Below are positions 295 to 61,771 of a stretch of 64,000 nt of DNA, piece by piece. The translations under genes were made by a program, and so were the position numbers. Within the stretch, counting starts at the first letter, position 1; each line of letters begins with the position of its first letter. The notes beneath the pieces are model-generated. The model had not been told where the DNA came from and did not search any database. It saw only the letters and a program-made list of their open reading frames with translations. Source of the stretch: a virus; IMG/VR virus record IMGVR_UViG_3300024313_000004, positions 32,001 through 96,000 of that record. One strand, written 5' to 3'.

Positions 295-1341
295 ATGATG
301 ATTAAAAAGTTTAATCAATATATTAAAGAAGATAATACAGGGGATAGACATCTCCTGTATTATGCTTTTGACTGGGATGATAATATTTTAAATATGACTA
401 CGGTTATTCACATGGAACACTTAATTGATGGTGAATGGTTACCTGAGGATGTATCAACTTCTAAATTTGCAGAAGTTAGATCTGATAAAGATAACTGGAG
501 AATTTTAGGTAATGATCCTGAACAAGCATTCTCTGAGTTTAGAGATAATGGACCAAGAGGTCAAGTTGCATTTTTAGAAGATGTTAAAGATTCTATTTCA
601 AATAAGAAATTTGGACCGGCTTGGAATGATTTTATTGAGTGTTTAGTAAATGGTTCTCTTTTTTCAATAATAACTGCTAGAGGACATGAATCTGAGGCAA
701 TGAGAACTGGTATTGAGTGGATATTAGATAATGTTTTATCTGAAGAAAGGATTTATGAGATGTATAATAACTTAATGAAGTTTGCTTATCTATTTAAACA
801 TAATAAAGAATTTGATAGAATACTTAAAGAACAACCATCTAAAAATGAATTATTTAAAGTTTATTTAGATAATTGTGATTTTGTTGGTGTTTCTGCACCA
901 TCAAGAGGTGGATCACCATCAAATCCTGAAAAGGCAAAAGAAGATGCACTTTTAATTTTTATTGACCGTGTAGATAAATTTGCATCATCAATAGGATATA
1001 AGGCTAAAGTTGGATTCTCTGATGATGATTTAGGTAATGTTAAACATATTGAAGATTTAACTGATAATATTCATCATGAACAATTTCCAAATCTATTATC
1101 ATTTGTAGTTAAGGGTACAAAAGATCCAGAAAACATAACAAAGAAAGTGAGAACTTTTGATGAATTTAAAGAGAGTCAGGATCCAATGGCGTCTAGTACG
1201 ATATCTATGCAAACTCCAAATGCAGCAATGTCTGGAGAATTAGATAGTAAAGATCCATATATTAAAGGAATGATTACACAATCTAAAAATTTAGCAAAAA
1301 CATCTAGAAAAATATTTGGTAAGAATAAAAAAAAAGATTAG
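295..1341 (+). CDS. HAD-superfamily phosphatase-like protein
   Basis: AFDWDDN (DxDD motif I), ITARG (motif II), FSDDD (motif IV); N-terminal MIKKFNQYIKE signal. Confidence 0.7.
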   Translation: MMIKKFNQYIKEDNTGDRHLLYYAFDWDDNILNMTTVIHMEHLIDGEWLPEDVSTSKFAEVRSDKDNWRILGNDPEQAFSEFRDNGPRGQVAFLEDVKDSISNKKFGPAWNDFIECLVNGSLFSIITARGHESEAMRTGIEWILDNVLSEERIYEMYNNLMKFAYLFKHNKEFDRILKEQPSKNELFKVYLDNCDFVGVSAPSRGGSPSNPEKAKEDALLIFIDRVDKFASSIGYKAKVGFSDDDLGNVKHIEDLTDNIHHEQFPNLLSFVVKGTKDPENITKKVRTFDEFKESQDPMASSTISMQTPNAAMSGELDSKDPYIKGMITQSKNLAKTSRKIFGKNKKKD

Positions 1342-7522: not shown

Positions 7523-8014
7523 TTATTCTTCGTTTTTATTTTCTAACTCACTGACTACATAGTCAATAAAGCTATCTAGTTCATATTCGTATCCTTCACA
7601 AAAGTCAAAAATGTCAAATTCATCTAAATTAAAAACACTTATAAAATCAGGTATTGTCATTTTAGTATTTGTATTATATATTATCTTACCTTCTAATCTA
7701 CCACTAATACTTTTACCACCCTTTAATATTAAATCGGGACAGTTTAAAATTCCAAAGTAATGTTTTTCATTATTATGGTATTCTATATGGTCAAATTCGA
7801 ATTTGAATAATCCTGAATCATCTTCAAAGAATCGTTCGCTTTCTATTTTATTTAATTCTTGGTGTACGTTTTCTTCACCGCCATATTTGTGTGCATCTAA
7901 GAAATCTTTTTCTAAATTGGAAAGTGACTTAATACCATGTTTTGATATTTTATCTAAAATATCATCGACTCTTTGTGCGGTTGTATATCCTTCGTATCTC
8001 ATCAAGTGTTTCAT
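7523..8014 (-). CDS. Hypothetical protein with DUF6576-like module
   Basis: Start likely MKHLMRYEGY (8014) after rc TAATATATA 8029-8037; VDDILDKISKHGIKSLSNLEKDFLD. Confidence 0.65.
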   Translation of the reverse strand: MKHLMRYEGYTTAQRVDDILDKISKHGIKSLSNLEKDFLDAHKYGGEENVHQELNKIESERFFEDDSGLFKFEFDHIEYHNNEKHYFGILNCPDLILKGGKSISGRLEGKIIYNTNTKMTIPDFISVFNLDEFDIFDFCEGYEYELDSFIDYVVSELENKNEE

Positions 8015-8055
8015 AATTTTCATTGGTTTATATATTATTTTTGAGAAACTTTTTT

Positions 8056-8409
8056 TTATAAAATCGTCGTTTTCCAATTGTTTTGATAATCCGTCTCTAT
8101 AATCTTTTTCTTTACTGCCTCATAAACTGGTATAAGATTACCTGAGGTTTGATATATAGCAATATTATTTTTTTGATATTTTTCTGAATTGAAATCTTCT
8201 GGATCTTTATTATAAAGTATAGAGTCTATTTTATTTTCTCGATCACGAGTCTTTATAACATCAACATAACTATCTATAAAGAATATTATAAAACCATCTT
8301 CTACTTTGTGATTTTTAATCATATCAAAATCTATTCCTTCATAGAAATAAGTGGTTACATCATTTATTTCTATCTTTTCAATCAAAGTCAAATCCATCAA
8401 ATAAATCAT
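8056..8409 (-). CDS. Hypothetical protein
   Basis: ORF; RENKIDSIL motif. Confidence 0.65.
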   Translation of the reverse strand: MIYLMDLTLIEKIEINDVTTYFYEGIDFDMIKNHKVEDGFIIFFIDSYVDVIKTRDRENKIDSILYNKDPEDFNSEKYQKNNIAIYQTSGNLIPVYEAVKKKIIETDYQNNWKTTIL

Positions 8410-8617
8410 CTATTTTTTTATCTCTAAAAGAACCTTTTTGTTTACCTTCAAATTCTTCATCTTTTTCGAATTTATTTTTAAATTCTTCAAATGCTGTTCT
8501 TGATATTTTAGAAAGTGCCATAGCACCGGTTGATATTTTACCTTCATTTAATTTGTCTGTTAGATAACTTACAAACATTGGATATAGTTTTTCATTTTTC
8601 ATAGAATATATATCCAA
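8378..8617 (-). CDS. Hypothetical protein
   Basis: ORF; RDKKIDDLF motif. Confidence 0.65.
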   Translation of the reverse strand: MDIYSMKNEKLYPMFVSYLTDKLNEGKISTGAMALSKISRTAFEEFKNKFEKDEEFEGKQKGSFRDKKIDDLFDGFDFD

Positions 8618-8655: not shown

Positions 8656-9387
8656 ATGATAAAAGATTTAAGTTTAGGACCAGTTTTCACAAGTAAGTAT
8701 GGTGATGTGAATTCAATAAATTGGTTGAATGGAATCATCAAAAAGTATATTGCAGAGGTTTATAGACCTTTTGGATATTATTATGGATGTCCTAATAAAG
8801 ACATTGATGTGGATGGTAGAAAAATAAATACAGAATATATTGCGAAGATGGTGAATAATTATACCGTTTTCAAAGGTATAATAGAGAAAGTTGGTATAAC
8901 GACTGAGGAAGAATTTTATGATTATATGACTAATAATTTATTTGATGTGTATAACTACAAAGGTCTTTACTTTGATGAAAAGACTTTACCAATTCTTATA
9001 GCAACCACCAGAAGAGGTAATAAAGGTGAACAAGATTCTTTAATTTTCTTTAAAAATGAATTACTTAAAAAGGGTATTCAATGTGTAATGATATCACCTA
9101 CACCAGAAGAAGATTTATCAGGTATAGATGGTAAATTCATTTGGAATGGTAAAGAATTGACTATACAAGTAAAGCCTTATGATAATATTATGGAGAATGA
9201 TGGTTTAGTGAGTGCGTACTCTCAAGGGTCGTTATCACTTAAAATAGTAGGATCTAGTAAAAATGTAGATTATTTAGTATTATATAAACTAGAAAAAAAT
9301 AGCTTTATTATTGTTCGTTCAAGTAATACTACTGTACAAGGTAATCTATTTAAATTCCCAAAAGATAAGATAATTTCAATGAAATAA
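8656..9387 (+). CDS. PD-(D/E)xK-fold endonuclease-like protein
   Basis: GNKGEQ...EEDLSGIDG...TIQVKP fits the E / D / QxK arrangement of PD-(D/E)xK nucleases. Confidence 0.55.
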   Translation: MIKDLSLGPVFTSKYGDVNSINWLNGIIKKYIAEVYRPFGYYYGCPNKDIDVDGRKINTEYIAKMVNNYTVFKGIIEKVGITTEEEFYDYMTNNLFDVYNYKGLYFDEKTLPILIATTRRGNKGEQDSLIFFKNELLKKGIQCVMISPTPEEDLSGIDGKFIWNGKELTIQVKPYDNIMENDGLVSAYSQGSLSLKIVGSSKNVDYLVLYKLEKNSFIIVRSSNTTVQGNLFKFPKDKIISMK

Positions 9388-9416
9388 AAAAGTCACTCAT
9401 TCTGAGTGACTTTTTT
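9386..9416. terminator. Bidirectional terminator, CACTCA/TGAGTG family
   Basis: AAAAAAGTCACTCA-TTC-TGAGTGACTTTTTT between convergent genes. Confidence 0.88.
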
Positions 9417-9430
9417 ATATTTTCTAAAGT

Positions 9431-10898
9431 TTATATACCTCCAAAGCCATTGAATATATCCATTACGACTGACAATCTCTCAGTTATTTCTGGCATTCCC
9501 AACGGTTCGATAATCTTATTTATCGGTGCCAAAATACACTTAGCGAATTGAATATCATAATTTATTTCAGGTGCAATCTCAATAGGATAAGAACCTCTGA
9601 TATATGCAAATATATCACCGTTATGTGTATCTTTACAATAATAATATTTTATCTTTGTTCCTGATTTTATAAACTCATATTTTGTTTGTAATAGTTTATT
9701 TTGATTTAATAAGTAATTATGATAAGCACTTGCCTTAACTGCAAAGTGTGCTCCATTTACAAACTTTAATGGTAATGATTTATCGTCAATTACTTTAGCA
9801 TCATAGTTCGAACAAGAAGATTGCATCGCGATATCGTCGATATCTGCTAACTCAAATTCTTTACGTAATGCTTTTATGAGTTTAAGTAAATCTTTGATGT
9901 TGAATGTATTTGAATTCTCAAATAAATATTTAACAATATTGATAATTTTCTCCCTAGCGAAAAGTGGTGTTGATGATCTAACAAGTTCCACTCCTTTTGG
10001 GTATAAGTATGATAATCTTTCATAAGGTATACCATCTTCAAAAGAAACATGTTGTATGTATTTCTTCTTAGCCAGAGATATAATAGATTCTGATATTCTT
10101 TCTAACTCAAAATCTTCTTTATTATCTACTCCAAATCCTGCAGCATAATCTTCTAAACACTGTTTGAAATATCCACCATATCTGTAATGGTCCATTCCGT
10201 GTATATAGTCTACTTCTCTTGACCAGTTCCATTTTACATCACAGGTAAGAGAACCACTTGAAACTAAGTTCATAAAATCTCTATCTTTTATGAATAAACC
10301 ATCTACAATTACCATTTCATAGTCCATTGTTAAAAGCTTTTCAAAGTCATTATAGTTTTCTGCACCACCAAGATAATTTGGATTATCAGTATTGATTTTT
10401 TTTGGTGATAAAACGATAAATTTCTTATCAATCTCACTTAATGATTTTGGATTTAGAAATAAATTCTCCCATTCTGAATGTTCTATTGCAGGTAGGAATG
10501 ATACAAATAAAGAATCGGTATCTGCATATATTGATACTGCTTCATTATTATTTATCTGTGTAACATTTCTAATACAAAGATTTTTATGGAATTCTTCATC
10601 TAAATGCCATTGATTATACCAATAATCTTCATTTACCATATCCATAGTTTTTGTTAAATCCCTTCCTTGTGCTGTAATTGTGCCTGCAACATGATTATTA
10701 TATAATATGAAGTAGGCTGTCGCGAATGCTCCGTAAGAGCCGTTCAGTACTAATTTTAGTCTTTTTGCCCCCAGTAAAAAATACCGGGGGCTAAACAAGA
10801 GCGAGCTGAAGTGCGTTGTAGTATTCCGCTTCCTTCTTTAGCTCGCTCGCTTGTTTTTTTAAAGACTCGATTTTTGATATTTTATCTTCTCGTGTCAT
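9431..10898 (-). CDS. polB: Family-B DNA polymerase, C-terminal subunit (fingers/palm/thumb; gp43B-like), interrupted by a 40-nt coding gap at 10757-10796
   Basis: ORF1 10898-10791 (MTREDK...YYNALQLALV*) joined to the ORF2 frame gives motif B QLALKLVLNGSYG; motif C YADTDS; AKKKY; KGVELVRSS; predicted 475 aa after joining. Confidence 0.88.
10767..10791 (-). other. GC-rich RNA hairpin inside the polymerase coding gap (candidate bypass signal)
   Basis: GCCCCCGGUA-UUUUU-UACUGGGGGC; the G-U pair makes it perfect only on the mRNA strand; no U-tract follows. Confidence 0.8.
10793..10856 (-). other. Long 5' stem-loop covering the proposed take-off codon
   Basis: AAACAAG(CG)AGCGAGCU pairs with AGCUCGCUCUUGUUU (15 bp, 2-nt bulge); inner GAAG/CUUC and GCG/CGC pairs. 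Confidence 0.7.
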
Positions 10899-10921
10899 AT
10901 AATTTATATACTTTTTATTAA

Positions 10922-10960
10922 ATAAGTTCTAAATGGAACTTATACTATTTGATATATATT
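10922..10960. promoter_or_regulatory. Back-to-back divergent promoter-like elements in an inverted repeat
   Basis: ATAAGTTC-TAAATG-GAACTTAT; each arm gives GAACTT followed about 20 nt later by ATAT(A) toward polB (-) or HNH (+). Confidence 0.45.
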
Positions 10961-10978
10961 TAAAATAGTATTATTTAT

Positions 10979-12082
10979 ATGGTAAAGGAGAAAGAAGTTT
11001 TAATTAAAATAAACATTAGAAATAGAGTTCATTTTGAAAGATTGGGGTATTCTATTGATGATGAGATATATGTTTCGGTTGTTGATTTGTTACCTGGTTC
11101 TAAATTTAAAGTCACTGCAATTTGTAAAATTTGTGAATCAGAAAATATACTACCATATAGTAAATATCTGGTAAATAAAAACAGAAATGGTAAAAATTAC
11201 TATTCTTGCTTTCGTTGTAAAACACATGTTAAGGAAAAAACTTGTATGGAAAGATATGGTGTAAAATCATATTCAATGACTAATGAATTTAGGGTATCAG
11301 AAAGTATAAAATGGAGAGGTATTAAAAAGGGTGGAGATAAAGGTGAAAAAACAATGTTGGAAAGGTATGGTGTAACATCATATTTTAAAACCGATAAGAG
11401 TAAAGAATATAATAGTAAATGGATGTCATCTGATGAGTTTAAAGAGAAGTCTAAGAGGACGATGTTGGAAAGATATGGAGTAGATCACTATTCAAAATCA
11501 AGTAAATTCAAAGAGTATATATCCTTAAATAAGGATCATATAGTTAATAAAATTAAAGAAACGTTTATTAATAAATATGGTGTGGATAACGCATTTAAAT
11601 TAGGAAGTTATAAAAAGAAAATGTTAGATTGTAGAGATAGTATTGAATGTAGTAAAAGGGAAACTTGTATGGAAAGGTATGGTGTGGATAATGTATCAAA
11701 AGTGGATATTATTAAAGAAAAGAGGAAAAAAACATTATTAGGTAATGGTCAAATTGTACCGGATGATAAAATAACCTCCTGGGAACTTTATAAAAAAAAT
11801 GTTAGAAATATGACTAAACGGAATAAAAAAATACTATATGAAGTATGGAACGGATTTGACTATTATGATAATGAATTTATTAAAGGTTATCTATCTCATA
11901 CACATACACACCGGTTTTATCCGACGATTGATCATAAAACTTCGGTATATTTTGGGTTTATAAATAAAATAGATCCAAATATAATTGGATCTATTGAAAA
12001 TTTATGCATAACCAAAAGGTTCATAAATTCAACTAAATCTAAAATGTGTGAAGAAGAGTTTTTAAAAATATTAAAGTCTTAA
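10979..12082 (+). mobile_element. Free-standing HNH-type homing endonuclease with ERYGV repeats
   Basis: Five (K/R/E)TxxE(R/K)YGV repeats; CxxC Zn motifs; C-terminal PTIDHK...IENLCITKRFIN H-N-N motif; opposite strand to both neighbours. Confidence 0.75.
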
Positions 12083-12083
12083 A

Positions 12084-12872
12084 TCACTCATCTTCTTCTT
12101 CAAAGTCTTGTTCAAAGCTCAACATTAAATTTGAGTCTTCATGTTTTACTAACATAAAGTTATCAAATATATGAAATTTAACATCACCGGAATCATTTAC
12201 ACATGATAGAAATTTCTTATTAAGTATTAGATTAGAATTTCTTTCATCATCTATTTTATCTATCTCAAGTTCCCATGCCGATGTTTCTGATACAACAACT
12301 TTACCGGAACTTACACCAATTTGTAATATCTTATCACCATTTATATTAGATAGTTTTTTTATATCTGTGAAATCATCTTTACTTATATTGAATGACCATC
12401 TACTATTTTTAATATTAAGACCTTGGTTTAGTTTACTTAAACTCATGTCTTTTATTTCATAATGTTCACCACCAATCCAATTGACTTTTAGTTTACCACC
12501 AACGATTTGTAATGCTCTTGCATCCATTATATCTTCATCATCTTGTGATTCTTTATGTGTTATTTCAATAGTGACTTTCTCATTATCTTTTAAAAAATTT
12601 AAATTTTTAACAAATTTCTTTGCATTTAGGATAATAATATCTATACCATATTCTAAGTCTTCTTTTATTTCAAATAGATCGTTAGTTTTTATAATGTAAT
12701 TTTTAAATGCTAGAATTGTTGCTTTCCCTAGAATAGAATACATCATAATATTCTCACTATCTATCTTAATTTTAATATTATCAGATATCTTAGTAAGGTC
12801 TTCTAACTTAGATATAAACTCTGAAAATTTTTCTGATTTTATTCTAAATTTATCTTTTCCTGATTTTGCCAT
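12084..12872 (-). CDS. Sliding-clamp-like protein (gp45/PCNA fold)
   Basis: 262 aa with duplicated alpha/beta pattern, acidic C-terminus, near the polymerase; no diagnostic motif. Confidence 0.55.
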   Translation of the reverse strand: MAKSGKDKFRIKSEKFSEFISKLEDLTKISDNIKIKIDSENIMMYSILGKATILAFKNYIIKTNDLFEIKEDLEYGIDIIILNAKKFVKNLNFLKDNEKVTIEITHKESQDDEDIMDARALQIVGGKLKVNWIGGEHYEIKDMSLSKLNQGLNIKNSRWSFNISKDDFTDIKKLSNINGDKILQIGVSSGKVVVSETSAWELEIDKIDDERNSNLILNKKFLSCVNDSGDVKFHIFDNFMLVKHEDSNLMLSFEQDFEEEDE

Positions 12873-14451: not shown

Positions 14452-14478
14452 AAAAGCCACTCAAATGAGTGGCTTTTT
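14452..14478. terminator. Bidirectional terminator, CCACTCA/TGAGTGG family
   Basis: AAAAGCCACTCA-AA-TGAGTGGCTTTT. Confidence 0.85.
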
Positions 14479-27077: not shown

Positions 27078-30062
27078 ATGGCTCAGAATATAGGAACATT
27101 AGTAGGTTCTGCAATAAGACCGATAGATAGTACAATGCCAATTGCATCAGCATTTGCATTTGAAATAAATGGTGGACACCATCAGGTTGGTACTTTAGTT
27201 GATAGAAATAATATAATGGTTCAGAGAAGGCAATGGGGTATGTTATGTACGGTTTATAATGACTCTGTTAACAATGGAACATATCAACTTAAATATGGTT
27301 ATAGTAGTACAGATTCAATGGATAATAGTAATTGGGTTTTATTTGGTGGTGGATCTGTCGGATCTGGAGTTTCCAATTGGAATGATCCTGTTATATCAAT
27401 TTCCACGACACCACCTACATATCCAGTTGATGGTGATAGATACCTTGTTGGTAAAAGTTCGACGGCTTCTTTAAGTGGTATATTTTCTAGTTTAACTAAT
27501 ACAGGATATGTTGGGAATCTAGTTGGTGGATATATTGCTGAATATAAAGATGCACTTAGTGGTTGGGAAACAACTCTACCTACTAATGGGATGACTATAA
27601 GAGTTAATAATGATGATAATTCATTTTATAGATATGAGGGAACATATTCGACTGGTCAATGGTATAAGGAAAGAGTTAATCAAGTTAGATCATTATTTGC
27701 AACAAGTGTTAATAAAATAGATTATACGGTAAGTACTGGTGACTTCTTCACATATTCAACCGAAGTAGTTTATTTGGTACAATTTGCAACTGCTAATTCA
27801 GGTGGTACTGCGTCTATAAATATCAATAGTTTGGGTACTAAGAATATGAAAAAGCAAACATCTACTGGAATTGTTGATTTGGATGCAAATGATTTAAATA
27901 CTACAGGTTTTTATCAACTCATATATGATGGTACATATTTTCGAGTAAATATTATAGGTGGTTCTAATACCGGTTCATCGTCTTTGAAGTATAAAATTGT
28001 CGAGGATGAAAGGATTGTTGTGCCTGCAAACTCTGAATATCTTTTATATGGTGATCTTGAGGTTAATGGTGTTTTAGATATTAGTTCAACAGGAAAAGTT
28101 GTTATAATAAACGGTGCATTAAATGTTAATGGTGGTACTGTTTCTAATTCTGCGAATGTATCATTAATTACTTTACCTACTTCATTAACAAGTGGGACTT
28201 CGGGAACAAGTGGGACTTCGGGAACAAGTGGGACTTCGGGAACAAGTGGGACTTCGGGAACAAGTGGTATAGCAGGTGATAGATATTTAACATTTACAAA
28301 TTCAAATCTAACAATAACAGATGTATTTGATACGATTTTATCATTTACTATAGAAACCGGATTTGCATATTCTATAAATCAATCTATAATAGTCACTCTA
28401 TCGTTAGGAAATTATATGGAGGCTATAGTAACAAGTTATGACTCTGGAACAGGTGCAATGACCGCAAAGGTTATAAATGGATATGGTAGTGGGAGTGGTA
28501 CAGGACCTTGGATTATAAATCTTGATGGTGCATCTGGTGGAGATGGAACTTCAGGAATTGATGGAACAAGTGGAACCTCGGGAATTGACGGAACTTCTGG
28601 AACAAGTGGAACCTCAGGAATTGATGGAGCTTCTGGAACAAGTGGAACTTCAGGAATTGATGGGGCTTCTGGAACAAGTGGAACCTCAGGAATTGATGGA
28701 GCTTCCGGAACAAGTGGAACTTCAGGAATTGATGGAGCTTCCGGAACAAGTGGAACTTCAGGAATTGACGGAACTTCTGGAACAAGTGGAACTTCTGGAA
28801 CAAGTGGAACCTCAGGAATTGATGGAGCTTCTGGAACAAGTGGAACTTCAGGAATTGATGGAGCTTCCGGAACAAGTGGAACCTCAGGAATTGACGGAAC
28901 TTCTGGGACAAGTGGAACCTCAGGAATTGACGGAACTTCTGGGACAAGTGGAACCTCAGGAACTTCTGGAACAAGTGGAACCTCAGGAATTGACGGAACT
29001 TCTGGGACAAGTGGAACTTCTGGAACAAGTGGAACCTCAGGAATTGACGGAACTTCTGGAACAAGTGGAATAACTTGGAATGGTGGAACGGTATCTAACC
29101 CAGTCTTCTTCACAAACACGGTTAGTTTAAATGGGTCGGTTGTTGGTGATATAGAATACCTCACGGATTATTCATCAACTTATACAAACAGAAGTTTAGT
29201 TGATAAAGAATATGTTGATACAAATATTTTATTCGAAACTGGTGGTGGATTAAACTCAACACAAAGAAAGAGTTTTGGAAATGCATTAGGTGCAAAGTCG
29301 TTCGCGTTGGGTACTGGAAACACAGCATCTGGTGAAAACTCTTCTATTCTTGGAGGACAAAATAATATTGTTAGTGGATTAAATGGTATTATATTAGGTG
29401 GTCAAATAAATAATGTTACAAATCAAGAAGGGTCTATCATTGGTGGTAATAATAACTCAGTTACAGCAAATAGGTCATCTATTTTAGGTGGTCGTGAGAA
29501 TGAGATAACTCAATCTGATGGTGTTATAATTGGTGGTATATTTAATACTGTTAGTGGTGCTAATTCAGTTATTATTGGTGGAACTGGAAGTTTCGTCAAT
29601 GGTATCAACTCTGTAATCATTGGTGGTGTGGGACTTACAAATAGTGTAAATAATACGGTTATGGTTCCAGATTTAAATGTTCAAGGTGGGGCATATGTAA
29701 ATAATAATTTAGATGTTGATGGACAAATATCAGTAGGAACAAGTTATTCGAACGCATTCACATCCAACACATTTAACTTTGACTGTGACCAAGGGATGGT
29801 GCAACATGTAGATGCACAAGGTATGTCAGCGAATGGTACTATCACTTTTAGTAATCAAAAAGAAGGTAGTACATATACATTATTATTCGTACAAGGAAGT
29901 GGTACATATGATGTAGTTTTACCAAGTGGTTATTGGTTAAACGATACAGCACCATTTGACTTTTCAACTGAGTTAGTCGATGATGAGAGAGCAATAATTA
30001 CAGCAACCTATATATTTAATGCTTGGTACTTTGCTGTTAAAAAAGTAACTTATGTTGCATGA
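27078..30062 (+). CDS. Tail fibre / adhesin-like protein with GTS collagen-like repeats
   Basis: (SGT)n/(SGIDG) runs; GGxxN-repeat beta-helix head; [18 protein letters not shown] fibre motif. Confidence 0.7.
28188..28267 (+). repeat. 18-nt tandem repeat x4 (ACAAGTGGGACTTCGGGA)
   Basis: Four perfect copies plus a partial one, encoding TSGTSG. Confidence 0.95.
28545..29069 (+). repeat. Degenerate 9/27-nt tandem repeat block encoding SGTSGIDG(T/A)
   Basis: About 525 nt of GGAACAAGT/GGAACTTCA/GGAATTGAT units. Confidence 0.92.
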
Positions 30063-30669
30063 TAAATAGTATATTACCTGGAATTATAGGACAATTACAA
30101 TCAACACCTTGGTGTTCTCCAATAGTTGGAACAACTTGGGACACTACCGTAGGGACTTCTAATAATTCATTCTCCCTGCTTATGGTTTATATGATTACTC
30201 ACAGAGTATGATGATTTTTAAACAATCTGAAATAGGTTCTGGAGAAAAGCAAATAAATTCAATATCATTCCAACTTAGTAATTATTCAGGTGGTTATACT
30301 ATGAATACTCAAGTAATAAAATTAGCACACATAACAGATAGTCAATTCGGAACTTCTGTAAAAAGTGATTTGACAGGTATTGGTGGGTTGGCCGACTTAA
30401 CAACGGTAAAAAGTTTTAATTGGTCAACTTCAAATGGTTGGGTTACATTTACTTTTGATGATAATTTTTGCTATAATGGAGTTGACAACTTAATGGTTGT
30501 GTGGGAAAACAGAGATGGTAGTTGGGAAAGTGGCTACGGATGGGCTGAATCTCATACTACAGGAGGAGAGTTTTTATCGTGGTATGTATATCAAGATAAT
30601 ACCTACCCAACTAGTGAATTTGGTACAAGAAGTTCTGCTAGTAGAGCTAATACAAGATTAGGTTATTAA
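30059..30669 (+). pseudogene. Fibre-associated gene split by a -1 frameshift (30059-30211 + 30166-30669)
   Basis: ATG 30059 overlaps the fibre stop (ATGA); the downstream frame is open from 30166 and reads PAYGLYDYSQSMMIFKQSEIG. Confidence 0.6.
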
Positions 30670-30685
30670 AAAATAAATAGATAAA

Positions 30686-30904
30686 ATGATAGATTTAGTA
30701 GGTTTAATAAATGATTTATCGACAAACGGTGTTGTTGATTTAATAGGTGAGAATAACACACTTTCTTATATTTTAGTAATGAGTGATGTTACTGAAATAA
30801 CTGTTGTAGAAAATATATTAGAAAGTTATATAATAACAAAATATCCAAATAGAGTTACATCGACATTGGTGGATGGTATCTATAAGGCCCAATATGATAA
30901 ATAA
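30686..30904 (+). CDS. Small hypothetical protein
   Basis: ORF track. Confidence 0.6.
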   Translation: MIDLVGLINDLSTNGVVDLIGENNTLSYILVMSDVTEITVVENILESYIITKYPNRVTSTLVDGIYKAQYDK

Positions 30905-31766: not shown

Positions 31767-34700
31767 ATGGATCAAAAGTTATTAAATGCATTAAATAATC
31801 TATCAGAGGCACTTCAGGAGATATCGGATGCTCTTAAAAGTAAAGGTGGTAATTCCGCAACTGCTAACGCATTACAAAGTGGTGACTTTATTTCTGAGAT
31901 AAAGGAAATAAGTGTTGGTATAAAACAACTTCAAATTGATAATAAAAAGATATTAAAGAATCAAGAGACTATAATACAACTTTCTAAAAAGGCCGCGGGT
32001 GATAAAAAGAGTGATTTTGAAAAAGCGGGTGGTGATAAAAAACAGGAAAGTAATATTAAAAAGGGAGTTGGTACTATATTATTAATTGCGGTTGCGGTAT
32101 TGGCTATAGGTGTGGCATTTAAGCTTGTTGGTGGTATAGATTTTTTATCTGTTATTGGTTTATCTATTGCTATATTAGTGGTTGCTAAGGCATTCGAGCA
32201 AGTTGCCTTACTAAAAATGAGTCTAAAGGAATCTGCAATTGTATCTGCTGCTCTTATTATGATGGCAACTGGTATAACTATATCATCTTGGATAATGTCT
32301 AAAATTAGTACAATTTCAATTGCACAATCTTTAACTGCTATTTTAATTGGTGTTGGATTTAGTACTATGGCACCTGCTATACGTAATATCATATCATCAT
32401 TCGGTGGAATGGGTTGGGGTAGTATTATTAAAGCGGCTGTTGGTTTGGTTATGGTATTGCCAGCAATTGCAATGGGTATTACCTTATCATCTTGGGTATT
32501 GAGAATGATTACACCTATTGGATTTGGTCAGGCTATTACTGCGATTTTAATAGCTGGTATGTTTACGGTTCTTTCTTTCTCTATTAAGAAATTAATAAAA
32601 GCATTTGGTACCGGATTTGGTACTTTGGTTAAGGCAGTATTATTTTTACCATTGGTTCTGCCTGCAATTGCATTAGGTATTGCCATGTCTTCTTGGGTGT
32701 TACAAAAAATAACTCCAATTACATTTTCTCAAGCAGTTAGTGCAATTTTAATTGGTGCTATGTTTACGGTTATTGCATTTGGTTTAAAGAAGTTATTGGG
32801 TGCATTTGGTGGCAACGCTATAATTGGGTTGGGTGCCGCTATATTATTTTTACCAACTGTTATGGGTGCTATTGCAGATGGTATTGTTCGTGCATCAAGC
32901 CACTTGAAGAAAACTGAAAAAGTAGGTTGGACTCAAGCTTGGAGTGCGATATTAATTGCTGGGATATTTACAGTTATATCGTTTGGGTTGAAAAATATTA
33001 TGAATGCTATGGATTCTATAGATAATCCATTGGGTATTTTATTGGTTCCTCTTTTATTACCTGCAGTTGCTTACGCTATACAACTTTCATCAGAACCATT
33101 GAGTAAAGTGAGTCTTATGACAATGGATCAGTTTTGGACATCTTTGGGTATATCAGTTCTTTTTATTGCATTTGCATTTGCATTAAAATTAATAGGACCT
33201 TCTATTGAGAAAATAGGTATGGGTGTGATAATTAAAATACCTTTGATGTTTACTGCACTTTCTGGTGCGATTTGGGCATCTTCTAAAATATTATCACAGG
33301 CTGATGTTATGTCTGATGATTTTTTAATGGGTTTACTTAAATTCTCAACAGTATTGGCCATTTCGGTTGCGGCTATGGCTGGCGTTACGTTTCTTCTTAA
33401 TAAAGTTGGTTTTACAAATATCATTAAGGGTGTTATTGCTATACCTATTATAGCTGGTGTTATAATGGCATCATCTTTAATTTTATCACTTGGTAAATAT
33501 GATAAAAAATCATATCCTAGTCTTGATTGGGCATTGGGTGTTGCTGCTAGTGTTGGTGGTTTTGCATTAGGTGCTGCTATTTTAGGACCAATGGTATTTG
33601 GTCCTCAGGCATTCTTATTTGCTGCTGGTTTGGCTGCAGTTCTTGCGGTTGCGGGAACTGTTGTTGCGGCCTCTCATATTCTTTCTAAAGGTGATTATAA
33701 GGGAGGTCCTGATTTGATTTGGTCATTAAGTGTGTCTAAAGTGATGAAGATTTTTGGTGGTTTGACTGCACTTCTTGGGGTTATGCCCAAATCTTGGGTA
33801 AAGGATGGTAATAAGGCTATACGATCTGTTGTAGATTCTATCGTTTATGCCGCTTGGATTTTCAAAGGTGCCGATGCTGCATTTACTGGTGGTCCGACAA
33901 AAGCTTGGGCTGAGGGAGTAGGTATTGCCATTGGTGCATTCTCACCAGTTTATGCTATGATGATGGCAAATGGTGTTGCTAAACTTTTTGGTGGTGGTGG
34001 TGTTGGACCTAAAGAGTTTTCTGATGCTATACGAACGGTATCTAGGGGTATTATAGATGCTGCAGGTATTTTTGCCAATCCTGAAAATACTGCGGTTTGG
34101 ATAAATGGTCCGACAAAGGCCTGGGCTGAGGGAGTAGGTACCGCAATTTCCGCATTCTCTCCTGTTTATTCTATGTTATTGAAAAATGGGATTGCTAAAC
34201 TTTTTGGTGGTGGTGGTGTTGGACCTAAGGATTTTGCATTGGCAATAACGACTATATCTCAAGGTATTATAGATGCGGCAGGTATTTTCGCAGAAAATGT
34301 TTCAAGTTTCGAAGAAGGTAAATATCCATCTAGTGAATGGGGTAAAGGTGTTGGTGGCGCTATAACTGCATTTGCTCCAGTATTTAAAGCATTGAGTGAG
34401 GATACTGGTTGGTTTACATCAGGTGACGAAGTTATCAATAATATGGTAAATGGTGTTCTTACCGTTGCGGGTGCTATCGTAGGTGTTGCAAATAAGTTTT
34501 CTGCTGATGATGTGAATTGGACTAAGTTTCCTGATAAAAACTGGTCATATCACATTAAAAATGTAGTTAATTCTTATGTTGCTTTATCAAATAGTGTTAA
34601 TAAGAAAAAGGTTACATGGTCTACACTTAATAGTCTAAGAAATGTTGTTAATTCGATTGCAACTACCGCAAGGATTTTTGGTAAAAATAGTAAGTACTTT

Positions 34701-59603: not shown

Positions 59604-61748
59604 ATGGCAGTGAAGTCAAATGATGAAAGACAAATGGTATTTACTACTAAATTTGTTGATGAGGCCACTGATAAGATAAATGATGGTGTTGTTGTTAAGA
59701 GATATCAAAATCCTTGGATGAAGAGTGAGGTCGGTATCAGAAGAGCCGGTGTCTCTTTCAGGATGACACCTGAAGAACAACAAGAATACGTAAGATGTGC
59801 GTTAGATATACATTACTTTACAGAAAAGTATTGTAAGACAAAAAGAGAAGATGGATCTGTTGGTTCTATTACTCTTAGGGACTATCAAAAAGAAATATTA
59901 GATAATTTTGTAAATAATAGATTTAATATACTTATGGCATCAAGACAGGTTGGTAAAACCGTGTCTTCTGCAATTTTCATACTACATACAATATTATTTA
60001 ATAATGATAAAAACTGTATGATTGTTGCGAATAAGGGTGATACTGCTGTTGAGATTGTCGATAAGGTTAAATCGATATACACATTACTACCATTTTTTTT
60101 AAAACCTGGTGTTAAGACTTGGAACCAGAAATCACTAACATTCGAGAATGGTTGTAGAATAAAAACATCTGCTAGATCTAAGACTCCTGCGATCGGTTTT
60201 ACGATTGATGTTCTTTACTTAGATGAGTTTGCACATATTCCATCGAATATTATTGAACCGTACTATACGGCGGCATTTCCGACCGTATCTGCAGTACAGA
60301 ATTCTAAAATTATAATAACTTCAACTCCAAATGGTATGAATTTATTTCATAGGTTACTTATTGATGCAGAGAGACCTGATGGTGATCCATTGAAGAATAA
60401 CTATAAACCAATGAGAGTTTATTGGTATCAAGTACCTGGTAGGTTTGTTACTTATATAAGATTAAATCCACATAAACTTTATGAGTATGGTGTTACTAAG
60501 GATGATATCTTTGATTTAGTGAATGGTGAATATGGTGAGAAAACAAAGGTTAAAATTGAGTTTAATATGGATCAACAGAAAGATGTTATTCATGTATTTA
60601 ATAATGATAAATGTACGGATGAACAGGTAAAGTCTATACATTTCATAGATAAAAATGGTTTTGAAACTTCTATATTAGCCATTGCAGAGTTGACTACTTG
60701 GCAGGATGAGGCGATAAAGGATATCGGTGGTGAAGATGCGTTCAATCAAGAGTATGGTTTGAGATTCATAAATGGTAGTAAGTCACTTTTGAATGAGGCA
60801 ATAATTGATGAGTTATTAAAATCTAAACGAAATTATAAATATGAGGAGATATCAGAATTTAAAAATAAATTGAAATTTATATATGAGGACCTAAAATGGA
60901 TTGACGATGATGGAATATTCGTACCATTAAGACGAAAAGATTATAAATTTGTGTTATCGGTTGATATATCAGAGGGACTTGGTCAAGATTACTCTATAAT
61001 AAATATTTTTAAGGTTTCTGAGAAACCAATTGATGTAATAGAACAACAAAAACATAAATATAAATCTATAACTGACTTTTTTAGATTAGAACAAGTTGGT
61101 ATGTTTAGAAATAACTTTGTTTCGGTTAAACAACTTTCTGAAATTCTTTATTTATTAGTATTTGAATATTTAAATCCTGAGAATGTTAGAGTTGTTTTGG
61201 AGTTAAATAATTATGGTAATACTTTACTTGCAGAAATGCCACATGTTTTTGATGGTAATAATAACTACGGTTCATCTGTTTTTGTTAGATATAAACATAG
61301 AATAGATTCTACCGAAGAAAAGGTTGGTCTTAAAGTTGGTGAAAATAAGAATATGATGGTTAAGGATTATCAAGATCTTATGTATAGTAAAGGTTTTCAT
61401 ATAACAAATGAAGATAACATACGTGAGATTACGACATTCGTTAAACATACTACAAGTGCTGGTAATACAAGATATGCTGCCGATGTTGGTCATGATGATA
61501 CTGTTATGACGATAGTTAATGCCACTTCTATATTTAATAAACCAGAGTTTAAAGAGTTAGTAGAAGAATGGGGTAATAAGTATAGTCCAAAGGAATTTAT
61601 GAACTATGTAAATGAATGTATGAGAAATATGGATTATGTACAGGGTCTCGATTATGGTCAAGTACTTAAAGTAAGAAGACAGGTTAAATCAAGAGTACAA
61701 AATACTGGTGGTAATGTTAGTGGTATAAACTGGTTTAATAAAAGTTAA
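59604..61748 (+). CDS. terL: Terminase large subunit (T4 gp17-like)
   Basis: Start at ATG 59604 (MAVKSN); ASRQVGKT Walker A, LYLDEFA Walker B, TSTPNG, VDISEGLGQDYS, GHDDTVM nuclease. Confidence 0.93.
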   Translation: MAVKSNDERQMVFTTKFVDEATDKINDGVVVKRYQNPWMKSEVGIRRAGVSFRMTPEEQQEYVRCALDIHYFTEKYCKTKREDGSVGSITLRDYQKEILDNFVNNRFNILMASRQVGKTVSSAIFILHTILFNNDKNCMIVANKGDTAVEIVDKVKSIYTLLPFFLKPGVKTWNQKSLTFENGCRIKTSARSKTPAIGFTIDVLYLDEFAHIPSNIIEPYYTAAFPTVSAVQNSKIIITSTPNGMNLFHRLLIDAERPDGDPLKNNYKPMRVYWYQVPGRFVTYIRLNPHKLYEYGVTKDDIFDLVNGEYGEKTKVKIEFNMDQQKDVIHVFNNDKCTDEQVKSIHFIDKNGFETSILAIAELTTWQDEAIKDIGGEDAFNQEYGLRFINGSKSLLNEAIIDELLKSKRNYKYEEISEFKNKLKFIYEDLKWIDDDGIFVPLRRKDYKFVLSVDISEGLGQDYSIINIFKVSEKPIDVIEQQKHKYKSITDFFRLEQVGMFRNNFVSVKQLSEILYLLVFEYLNPENVRVVLELNNYGNTLLAEMPHVFDGNNNYGSSVFVRYKHRIDSTEEKVGLKVGENKNMMVKDYQDLMYSKGFHITNEDNIREITTFVKHTTSAGNTRYAADVGHDDTVMTIVNATSIFNKPEFKELVEEWGNKYSPKEFMNYVNECMRNMDYVQGLDYGQVLKVRRQVKSRVQNTGGNVSGINWFNKS

Positions 61749-61771
61749 AGCCACTCAATGAGTGGCCTTTT
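61748..61771. terminator. Terminator, CCACTCA/TGAGTGG family
   Basis: AAGCCACTCA-A-TGAGTGGCCTTTT. Confidence 0.8.

Follow-up and report, generated by a model that had tools for sequence, protein, structure and literature searches.

How might a phage obtain a DNA polymerase from a gene that is broken, inside one of its catalytic motifs, by a stop codon and a change of reading frame? The question is raised by a stretch of 64,000 nucleotides of viral DNA (positions 32,001 to 96,000 of IMG/VR record IMGVR_UViG_3300024313_000004; hereafter the window, in whose numbering coordinates are given), where 40 nucleotides of the minus strand separate the first codons of a family-B DNA polymerase (PolB) gene from the rest of the enzyme. 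An initial annotation, made from the letters of the window, had suggested that ribosomes skip these nucleotides. We propose that they are probably the coding gap of a programmed translational bypass and, at the same time, the far edge of a homing-endonuclease cassette, in an arrangement analogous to T4 mobA/gene 60; the proposal rests on comparison of the locus with its relatives in other phages. The layout first described for the gene was reproduced at every coordinate on the minus strand (ATG at 10898, then CUU, GUU and UAG, and an open frame at 9431–10798), and its parts are the following.

10797–10898, minus strand: first coding segment of the gene for the C-terminal half of PolB, from the ATG through 34 codons ending in ...YYNALQLAL; a homologous 34-codon leader is present in LR745206.1.

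10757–10796, minus strand: putative coding gap of 40 nt, made up of GUU, UAG, a hairpin, an A-rich spacer and the landing triplet CUA; it is missing in gap-less relatives and lines up with 27 other distinct alleles of 36–48 nt.

10767–10791, minus strand: hairpin with a 10-bp stem, GCCCCCGGUA / UACUGGGGGC, containing one G-U pair and closed by a U5 loop.

9431–10756, minus strand: second coding segment, from AAA (Lys35, motif B) to the stop codon, with KLVLNGSYG, YADTDS (motif C) and the thumb.

The 35-codon open reading frame (ORF) that begins at ATG 10898 is MTREDKISKIESLKKQASELKKEAEYYNALQLALV and then meets a stop; the 455-codon frame at 9431–10798 contains KRLKLVLNGSYG and reads KRLKLVLNGSYGAFAT, with YADTDS further on. 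This long frame matches Pfam DNA_pol_B (E = 4.6e-16) from profile position 157 onward only, and the second segment matches PHROG DNA polymerase families with E = 1e-43. The family-B hallmarks of a C-terminal half are present, motif B as KLVLNGSYG (K-x3-N-S/G-x-Y-G) and motif C as YADTDS (Y-x-D-T-D-S), and the gene encodes the catalytic C-terminal half of a family-B DNA polymerase that is split in two. In LR745206.1 the enzyme is likewise encoded by two genes about 100 kb apart, at about 233,000–234,400 and at 130,583–131,950 (L077/L081 and L001), one half carrying the exonuclease and motif A and the other motifs B and C and the thumb. No N-terminal half was found on the 134.6-kb contig to which the window belongs (29.6% GC), which itself covers about 23% of the genome; the viral record is estimated to be 23% complete, so that the genome would measure roughly 0.5–0.6 Mb, and the nearest record in a phage collection is LR745206.1, an uncultured phage of 634,780 bp.

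On the minus strand the take-off codon CUU (10799–10797) is followed by GUU (10796–10794) and UAG (10793–10791). The hairpin arms occupy 10791–10782 and 10776–10767, the A-rich spacer 10766–10760 and the landing triplet CUA 10759–10757, after which coding resumes with AAA at 10756; the insert is flanked by CUU and CUA. LR745206.1 has an unbroken 474-codon gene with a similar 34-residue leader that reads YYNALQLALKLVLNGSYG. Because this gap-less gene reads through, the insert of the window can be set at exactly 40 nt, lying in motif B after Leu34 and before Lys35. With the first base of the take-off codon taken as +1, the stem begins at +9. The GC-rich hairpin with its G-U pair was found as first described, at 10791–10767, and folds more stably as sense RNA (−20.6 kcal/mol, against −15.4 kcal/mol for antisense); the 76-nt local fold has −24.1 kcal/mol and z = −3.1. 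A hairpin of such strength is a single instance in the whole 134.6-kb contig, and neither a search allowing up to 3 mismatches nor a general scan for GC hairpins found further copies of it there.

When viral contigs were scanned, 72 related loci were recovered, and motif B is interrupted by an insert in at least 38 of them. These inserts amount to 28 distinct alleles if the window is counted, and the remaining loci read straight through (QLALKLVLNGSYG), except a few whose 5′ part was not recovered. The expectation that relatives would be either uninterrupted or provided with a diverged hairpin was thus borne out on both sides, by LR745206.1 on the one hand and by inserts with covarying arms on the other. 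The inserts occupy five positions, all within ten codons of motif B.

Ala33 site: take-off GCU, landing GCA or GCU; L013, L014, L048, L060 and L063.

Leu34 site: take-off CUU, landing CUA (once CUC and CUA); 17 distinct alleles, the window among them.

Val37 site: take-off GUU, landing GUA; L031.

Ser41 site: take-off UCU, landing UCA; L035.

Tyr42 site: take-off UAU or UAC, with coding resumed at the Gly43 codon; 9 distinct alleles and one more truncated by the contig end.

Insert lengths, from 36 to 48 nt, fall into the three classes modulo 3 as 8, 10 and 10. The eight alleles that are in frame nevertheless contain stops, and a route through the insert by a single frameshift is blocked by stops in 19 of the 28. 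Because of this spread of lengths and these stops, the inserts appear to be generally untranslated. The same observations bear on the proposal that a +1 shift at CUU-G lets the insert be translated, adding about 13 residues between Leu34 and Lys35. In the window such a route exists, the +1 frame being open from 10798 throughout the insert. In the 19 related alleles it is closed; the extra residues would break the Q-x3-K-x3-N-x2-YG spacing held by every gap-less relative; and the alignment of the inserts shows nothing conserved at the protein level. The shift, which the initial annotation had named as an alternative in the form of a +1 slip at GUU-UAG, is in our opinion highly improbable.

What is conserved is the layout: a take-off codon ending in U, usually one sense codon, a stop, the hairpin, an A-rich spacer and the landing triplet. 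In all inserts the 5′ arm of the hairpin opens with a C-run and the 3′ arm closes with a G-run; stems have 9–12 bp and −17.5 to −34.6 kcal/mol, and the spacer that follows them measures 4–14 nt, is A-rich and almost without C. As folded, the stem starts at +9 or +10 in 23 of the 28 alleles, whichever the take-off codon, and four of the five others have the core of the C-run at about the same place. The 5′ arms come in 23 distinct sequences, each complementary to its own 3′ arm. When arms are swapped between alleles, the six pairs closest to the loop form at a mean rate of 47% (at most 61% over 2000 permutations); the covariation was measured by this permutation, as the MAFFT alignment of the inserts departs from the structure in some rows. 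The hairpin is more stable on the sense RNA than on the antisense in 26 of the 28 alleles (p = 6.5e-6, although here as below the alleles counted are kin to one another and p-values overstate their independence) because of G-U pairs, which make up 29 of 358. This points to a role of the hairpin in the mRNA rather than in double-stranded DNA.

The codons at the two ends of the gap vary together. Outside the Tyr42 class, the take-off codon of every one of the 19 alleles shares its first two bases with the landing codon (CUU/CUA, CUC/CUA, GCU/GCA, GCU/GCU, GUU/GUA and UCU/UCA), and the junction residue is encoded on both sides of the gap. Within a single hairpin lineage, defined by the inner stem UCUGA/UCAGA, the insert stands at Leu34 in L069 and at Ala33 in L013 and L063, and in the latter two the trailing triplet is GCA or GCU instead of CUA. 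The site has thus moved by one codon with the matching pair altered, and each such step would be functional if the peptidyl-tRNA needs a matching triplet; fixed cut sites would not explain a move of this kind.

That last point concerns the excision of the 40 nt from the RNA, either as a mini-intron or by cleavage on both sides of the hairpin and ligation by a phage or host RNA ligase, which would leave an mRNA collinear with the protein. Excision would account for the selection of the hairpin on the sense RNA strand, it would require no matched codons in the Tyr42 class, and homing endonucleases, one of which is predicted next to the gene (see below), often accompany introns. The RNA libraries lean the other way. 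The stretch is found in many seawater runs, among them nine metatranscriptome runs. Contigs from three metatranscriptome runs span from 9439 to 10866, 10890 and 10900 and keep the 40 nt with no mismatch, gap or joint, with the limit that RNA libraries may hold DNA and that contigs hide rare variants such as a minor spliced form. Efficient excision should have given a joint or a break at the gap in these contigs. The RNA-library contigs end near the start codon, where the contig from a DNA run continues beyond, which is a weak hint that they originate from transcripts; the contig of DNA run X10 is limited to 10840–11000 and so does not span the gap. The three RNA-library contigs share one end, exactly at 9439, which is about 20 nt short of a terminator hairpin and 6 nt before the stop codon, and one carries adapter sequence at that position. 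The assembly may have broken there, at the palindrome, or the molecules may really end at this point, and the ends at 9439 and at 10866–10900 may be assembly breaks near the palindromic terminator and not true transcript ends.

The sequences themselves also argue against excision. Self-splicing introns depend on a conserved fold of catalytic RNA that measures about 200 nt or more, far above the 36–48 nt of the inserts, and a search of Rfam gave one match, below threshold, the single-hairpin inserts failing as self-splicing introns. Between the stem and the 3′ junction there are anywhere from 4 to 14 nt, and no sequence is conserved at the boundary; the junction tracks the codon match in 19 of the 28 alleles, and a stop right after the take-off codon has no role in splicing. 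Excision, which the initial annotation had named as an alternative in the form of a spliced mini-intron of 40 nt, we regard as unlikely. An error of assembly or sequencing is of negligible probability: contigs from three further read sets, across the gap, carry the identical sequence, which settles the concern first raised on this point; the runs of many samples contain 94–100% of the sampled words; and homologous inserts occur in dozens of independent assemblies.

Could the interrupted allele simply give no working polymerase? The gene might be decaying and kept by complementation, or the 35-residue peptide and a protein started downstream might assemble. The polymerase is already split into N- and C-terminal genes, a precedent for assembly from several pieces, and endonuclease cassettes can be mildly harmful. 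Both flanking frames, on the contrary, are intact in all 28 distinct gap alleles over 58–86% protein identity, and the position of the hairpin and the matching of codons are conserved, as would not be expected of a dead gene. The two gap-bearing genomes that are 98% complete contain no second PolB C-terminal half and no family-A polymerase. Many alleles have UGA immediately before the landing codon and in the landing frame, and therefore a separate start there would lose the catalytic Lys35. We give this explanation very little credit.

An altered genetic code was considered and rejected: the standard code gives 100 ORFs over 83% of the contig with all three stops in use (TAA 82, TGA 11 and TAG 7), and reading UAG as a residue would still not restore the frame.

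Taking into account that (i) the arms of the hairpin covary; (ii) stops close the inserts; and (iii) insert length takes any value modulo 3, the comparative data support the bypass that had been suggested for this locus, and that we, too, infer from them. In the model that we propose, the ribosome would make the 34-residue leader and stall with peptidyl-tRNA-Leu on CUU. The stable hairpin, with its base 5–6 nt beyond CUU and a stem of about −20 kcal/mol, would hinder decoding in the A site; stem-loops at the mRNA entry channel are reported to be able to hinder A-site tRNA binding (PMC7282821). With the A site hindered by the hairpin, the next codon can be an ordinary sense codon and the stop a backstop. 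The tRNA would then unpair and the ribosome pass or hop over the base of the hairpin, which in its folded state would bring the take-off and landing triplets within about 10–20 single-stranded nucleotides of each other. Re-pairing with CUA and decoding from AAA would give ...QLAL-KLVLNGSYG..., and the predicted tryptic peptide across the junction of the fused product is EAEYYNALQLALK. Ribosomes that do not take off would terminate at UAG after one more codon. The last base of take-off codons is U and that of landing triplets mostly A; as a speculation, these third bases would suit tRNAs with a wobble U, pairing weakly at take-off and strongly at landing. No tRNA genes were found in the 134.6-kb contig, and so no phage tRNA-Leu that reads CUU and CUA is encoded there. 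Leader residue 12 (10863–10865 in the window) is Ser in 23 of the 28 gap alleles and in none of 17 gap-less ones, a pattern that may reflect shared ancestry of the cassette or a signal in the nascent peptide.

Several observations weigh against this reading, beyond the open +1 frame of the window, the kinship of the alleles and the limits of RNA-library contigs. The first is the Tyr42 class, where the triplet before the resume codon is AAC, AGC, GAC, CAA or UAA after a take-off at UAU or UAC, and the two are unmatched in most of its alleles. Among the internal evidence, this class speaks most against a strict gene 60 mechanism: in these alleles landing is either tolerant of poor pairing or determined in another way. 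The second concerns the stop. A stop falls within two codons of take-off in 22 of the 28 alleles (19 have it at the second codon and 3 at the first), so that the position one codon beyond take-off, which the initial annotation had set apart from gene 60, is the usual one in the family; a stop directly after take-off, as in gene 60, is not what the window has, since GUU precedes UAG. Six alleles lack a stop within the two codons, and in three of these the first stop lies 8–13 codons on, partly through loss; one allele has none. Take-off is followed by a sense codon in frequent use, not by a rare one (both GUU and UUU are common in the genome). Finally, the idea that the G-run of the hairpin serves as a Shine-Dalgarno-like landing aid was downgraded because the genes of the phage do without such motifs, which stand upstream of 3 of the 100 long ORFs of the contig against a background of 6%; the host probably initiates translation independently of Shine-Dalgarno pairing. 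A bolder version of the bypass reading is that the element is an independently evolved, minimal and portable module, in which one hairpin at a constant 5–6 nt from take-off serves five codons and, in the Tyr42 class, does so with no matched landing codon; landing would then be set by the geometry of the hairpin, through a hop over its base, and not by re-pairing of the anticodon as in gene 60. We put this forward as a tentative possibility, with fewer chances of being right than of being wrong.

How did the gap arrive in the gene? The initial annotation had missed the homing endonuclease gene beside it, the place of the insert at the edge of a presumed mobile cassette, and the existence of a family with five take-off codons. 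Two further features are needed here.

10979–12082, plus strand: gene for a predicted homing endonuclease of 367 aa, in divergent orientation to the polymerase gene, whose ATG is 80 nt away, assigned through PHROG, Pfam and a modelled HNH-like C-terminal domain.

10757–12087, no strand assigned: presumed mobile cassette, comprising the endonuclease gene, the promoter region, the first 34 polymerase codons and the gap.

The 367-aa protein has repeated ERYGV modules and a C-terminal HNH-like domain. Its matches are to PHROG 'homing endonuclease' families (E = 3e-12 and 1.6e-10) and to Pfam DUF7487, and sequence searches of PDB and NCBIfam gave no match. The model of residues 277–367 (mean pLDDT 83) superposes on HNH nucleases, best exemplified by 4h9d_A (Z 7.2, root-mean-square deviation 4.7 Å over 87 aligned residues), and on Cas9 HNH domains with Z about 6, Z values that are middling; Foldseek alone gave weak E-values only. 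Asp318, His319, Asn341 and Asn350 are invariant across 13 homologues, in keeping with the catalytic His and Asn of an HNH domain, so that the product, on the strength of the model, is a predicted HNH-type homing endonuclease.

Endonuclease homologues stand at the same place in 17 of the 28 gap alleles, three of them as decayed remnants, and in none of about 20 gap-less ones (Fisher p = 6.5e-6); the gap alleles that are free of the endonuclease have ordinary neighbour genes there. When the window is compared by blastn with L003, its closest gap-less relative, homology is confined to 13109–12088 and 10759–8120. These flanks are 76–78% identical, the 1.33-kb cassette between them has no counterpart in L003, and the block ends at the landing codon, where DNA homology to the gap-less allele resumes. 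A second breakpoint of this kind is seen between L013 and L027: their downstream proteins are identical in the tree, with 94.6% DNA identity from immediately after the gap, and the gap site, the hairpin and everything upstream all differ. In the protein tree the presence and site of the insert change at least 25 times, giving a patchy distribution. Breakpoints and patchiness are, as read from these sequences, the signature expected of homing. The endonuclease would cut the gap-less motif B DNA of co-infecting relatives, and repair would then copy the cassette into the cut allele. The insert, by analogy with MobA, probably destroys the enzyme's own target in motif B and, by removing that site, would protect the carrier.

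A spread of the kind seen for byps, the multi-copy bypass inserts of yeast mitochondria, was not observed: there is one insert per genome, always in PolB motif B. A multi-copy mobile family was also rejected, as the other C5...G5 hairpins in five nearly complete relatives are intergenic terminators or chance in-frame sequence. These other C-run/G-run hairpins lie between genes and are flanked by an A-run and a T-run. One terminator of the window is the following.

9384–9418, no strand assigned: two-way terminator hairpin between the polymerase gene and the convergent gene at 8656–9387.

Terminators of the same style, with an A-run, a GC-rich stem such as GCCACTCA/TGAGTGGC and a T-run, are located between genes at 9384–9418, 14452–14477 and 61747–61769 of the window and at 30052–30079 and 30763–30798 of the contig. 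The flanks of the bypass hairpin are opposite to theirs, U-rich on the 5′ side and A-rich on the 3′ side, and therefore it should not terminate transcription.

The T4 MobA/gene 60 element is a 50-nt bypass within a homing-endonuclease element (Huang 1988; Bonocora 2011); in its family the interrupted gene is that of the topoisomerase II large subunit, take-off occurs at Gly46 or Asp45, differences in the third base are readable by one tRNA, and some relatives have lost MobA yet keep the gap (bioRxiv 10.1101/2022.08.31.505936, Manning & Atkins). The polymerase locus resembles it in several respects. In both, the second gene of a replication enzyme that is split and essential is interrupted, a few dozen codons from its start, by a gap that cannot be translated; the codons of take-off and landing agree, with a third base that may differ (here outside the Tyr42 class); take-off is followed by a stop; and a stem-loop stands just beyond the take-off codon. 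In both, too, the gap is linked to an HNH-type endonuclease gene, some alleles keep the gap without the endonuclease, and the insertion point moves by one codon between lineages. There are differences as well. The host gene is PolB, at motif B, instead of a topoisomerase, and no homology in sequence links the element to the cassette of gene 60; at 36–48 nt the gap is shorter, and it consists of one strong C-run/G-run hairpin 5–6 nt past take-off; a codon usually intervenes before the stop, take-off occurs at five different codons, and in the Tyr42 class the landing triplet is unmatched. As for the endonuclease gene, it lies upstream in divergent orientation and not between the polymerase halves, which are about 100 kb apart. 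Hence, the polymerase element is an analogue of the T4 MobA/gene 60 element and not a member of its family.

The byps of Magnusiomyces capitatus mitochondria (Lang 2014; Nosek 2015) reportedly share with the inserts described here the short GC-rich hairpin, the AT-rich genome and the interruption of essential genes; they differ in being multi-copy over most genes, whereas here there is one per genome, always in PolB motif B, borne by a phage in a bacterial system and linked to an endonuclease. A candidate regulatory bypass of a Streptomyces phage (PMC10732093; Smith 2013, cited in PMC5009743) is likewise a proposed short ribosome hop in a phage gene; its gap is reportedly much shorter, its suggested role regulatory, and neither a strong hairpin nor an endonuclease cassette is reported as part of it. 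Our literature searches returned no description of a bypass in a polymerase gene.

A further parallel is with inteins and endonuclease-bearing introns of phage and archaeal polymerases, which are also selfish elements in a catalytic motif, removed from the product harmlessly. The polymerase element differs from them in that most likely neither protein nor RNA splicing is at work, the insert being untranslatable and too short to self-splice. Relatives of the same polymerase gene carry inteins in motif C: in L047, L050, L056 and L062 (about 1440–1530) the sequence runs ...YGD and then S/C..., and ends in ...ILVHN before TDS or S. In L051–L053 (about 1780–2150 in L051) the halves of a motif C intein are in different frames, which may be a further break or recoding event.

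Two neighbouring features may be recorded. In L027, which bears a gap, the gene immediately upstream of the polymerase (772–1290, plus strand) matches a PHROG translation initiation factor with E = 3e-41. In the window, three consecutive ORFs on the minus strand at 7523–8617 (184, 117 and 79 aa) lie in different frames, with overlaps of 22 and 32 nt, and have no family match; they are probably separate small genes.

To our knowledge, efficient long-range bypassing is known only from T4 gene 60 and its homologues, all in topoisomerase genes, and from one group of yeast mitochondria. If the bypass proposed here is true, it would add a second, unrelated phage family, and the combination of endonuclease plus bypass would have evolved more than once. 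The 28 natural variants would constitute a natural mutagenesis series in the take-off codon, the position of the stop, the sequence of the hairpin, the length of the spacer and the match at landing, in an element that is small, simple and amenable to reporter tests. Moreover, unless the element is recognised, gene callers would call the polymerase of these abundant marine giant phages broken or truncated.

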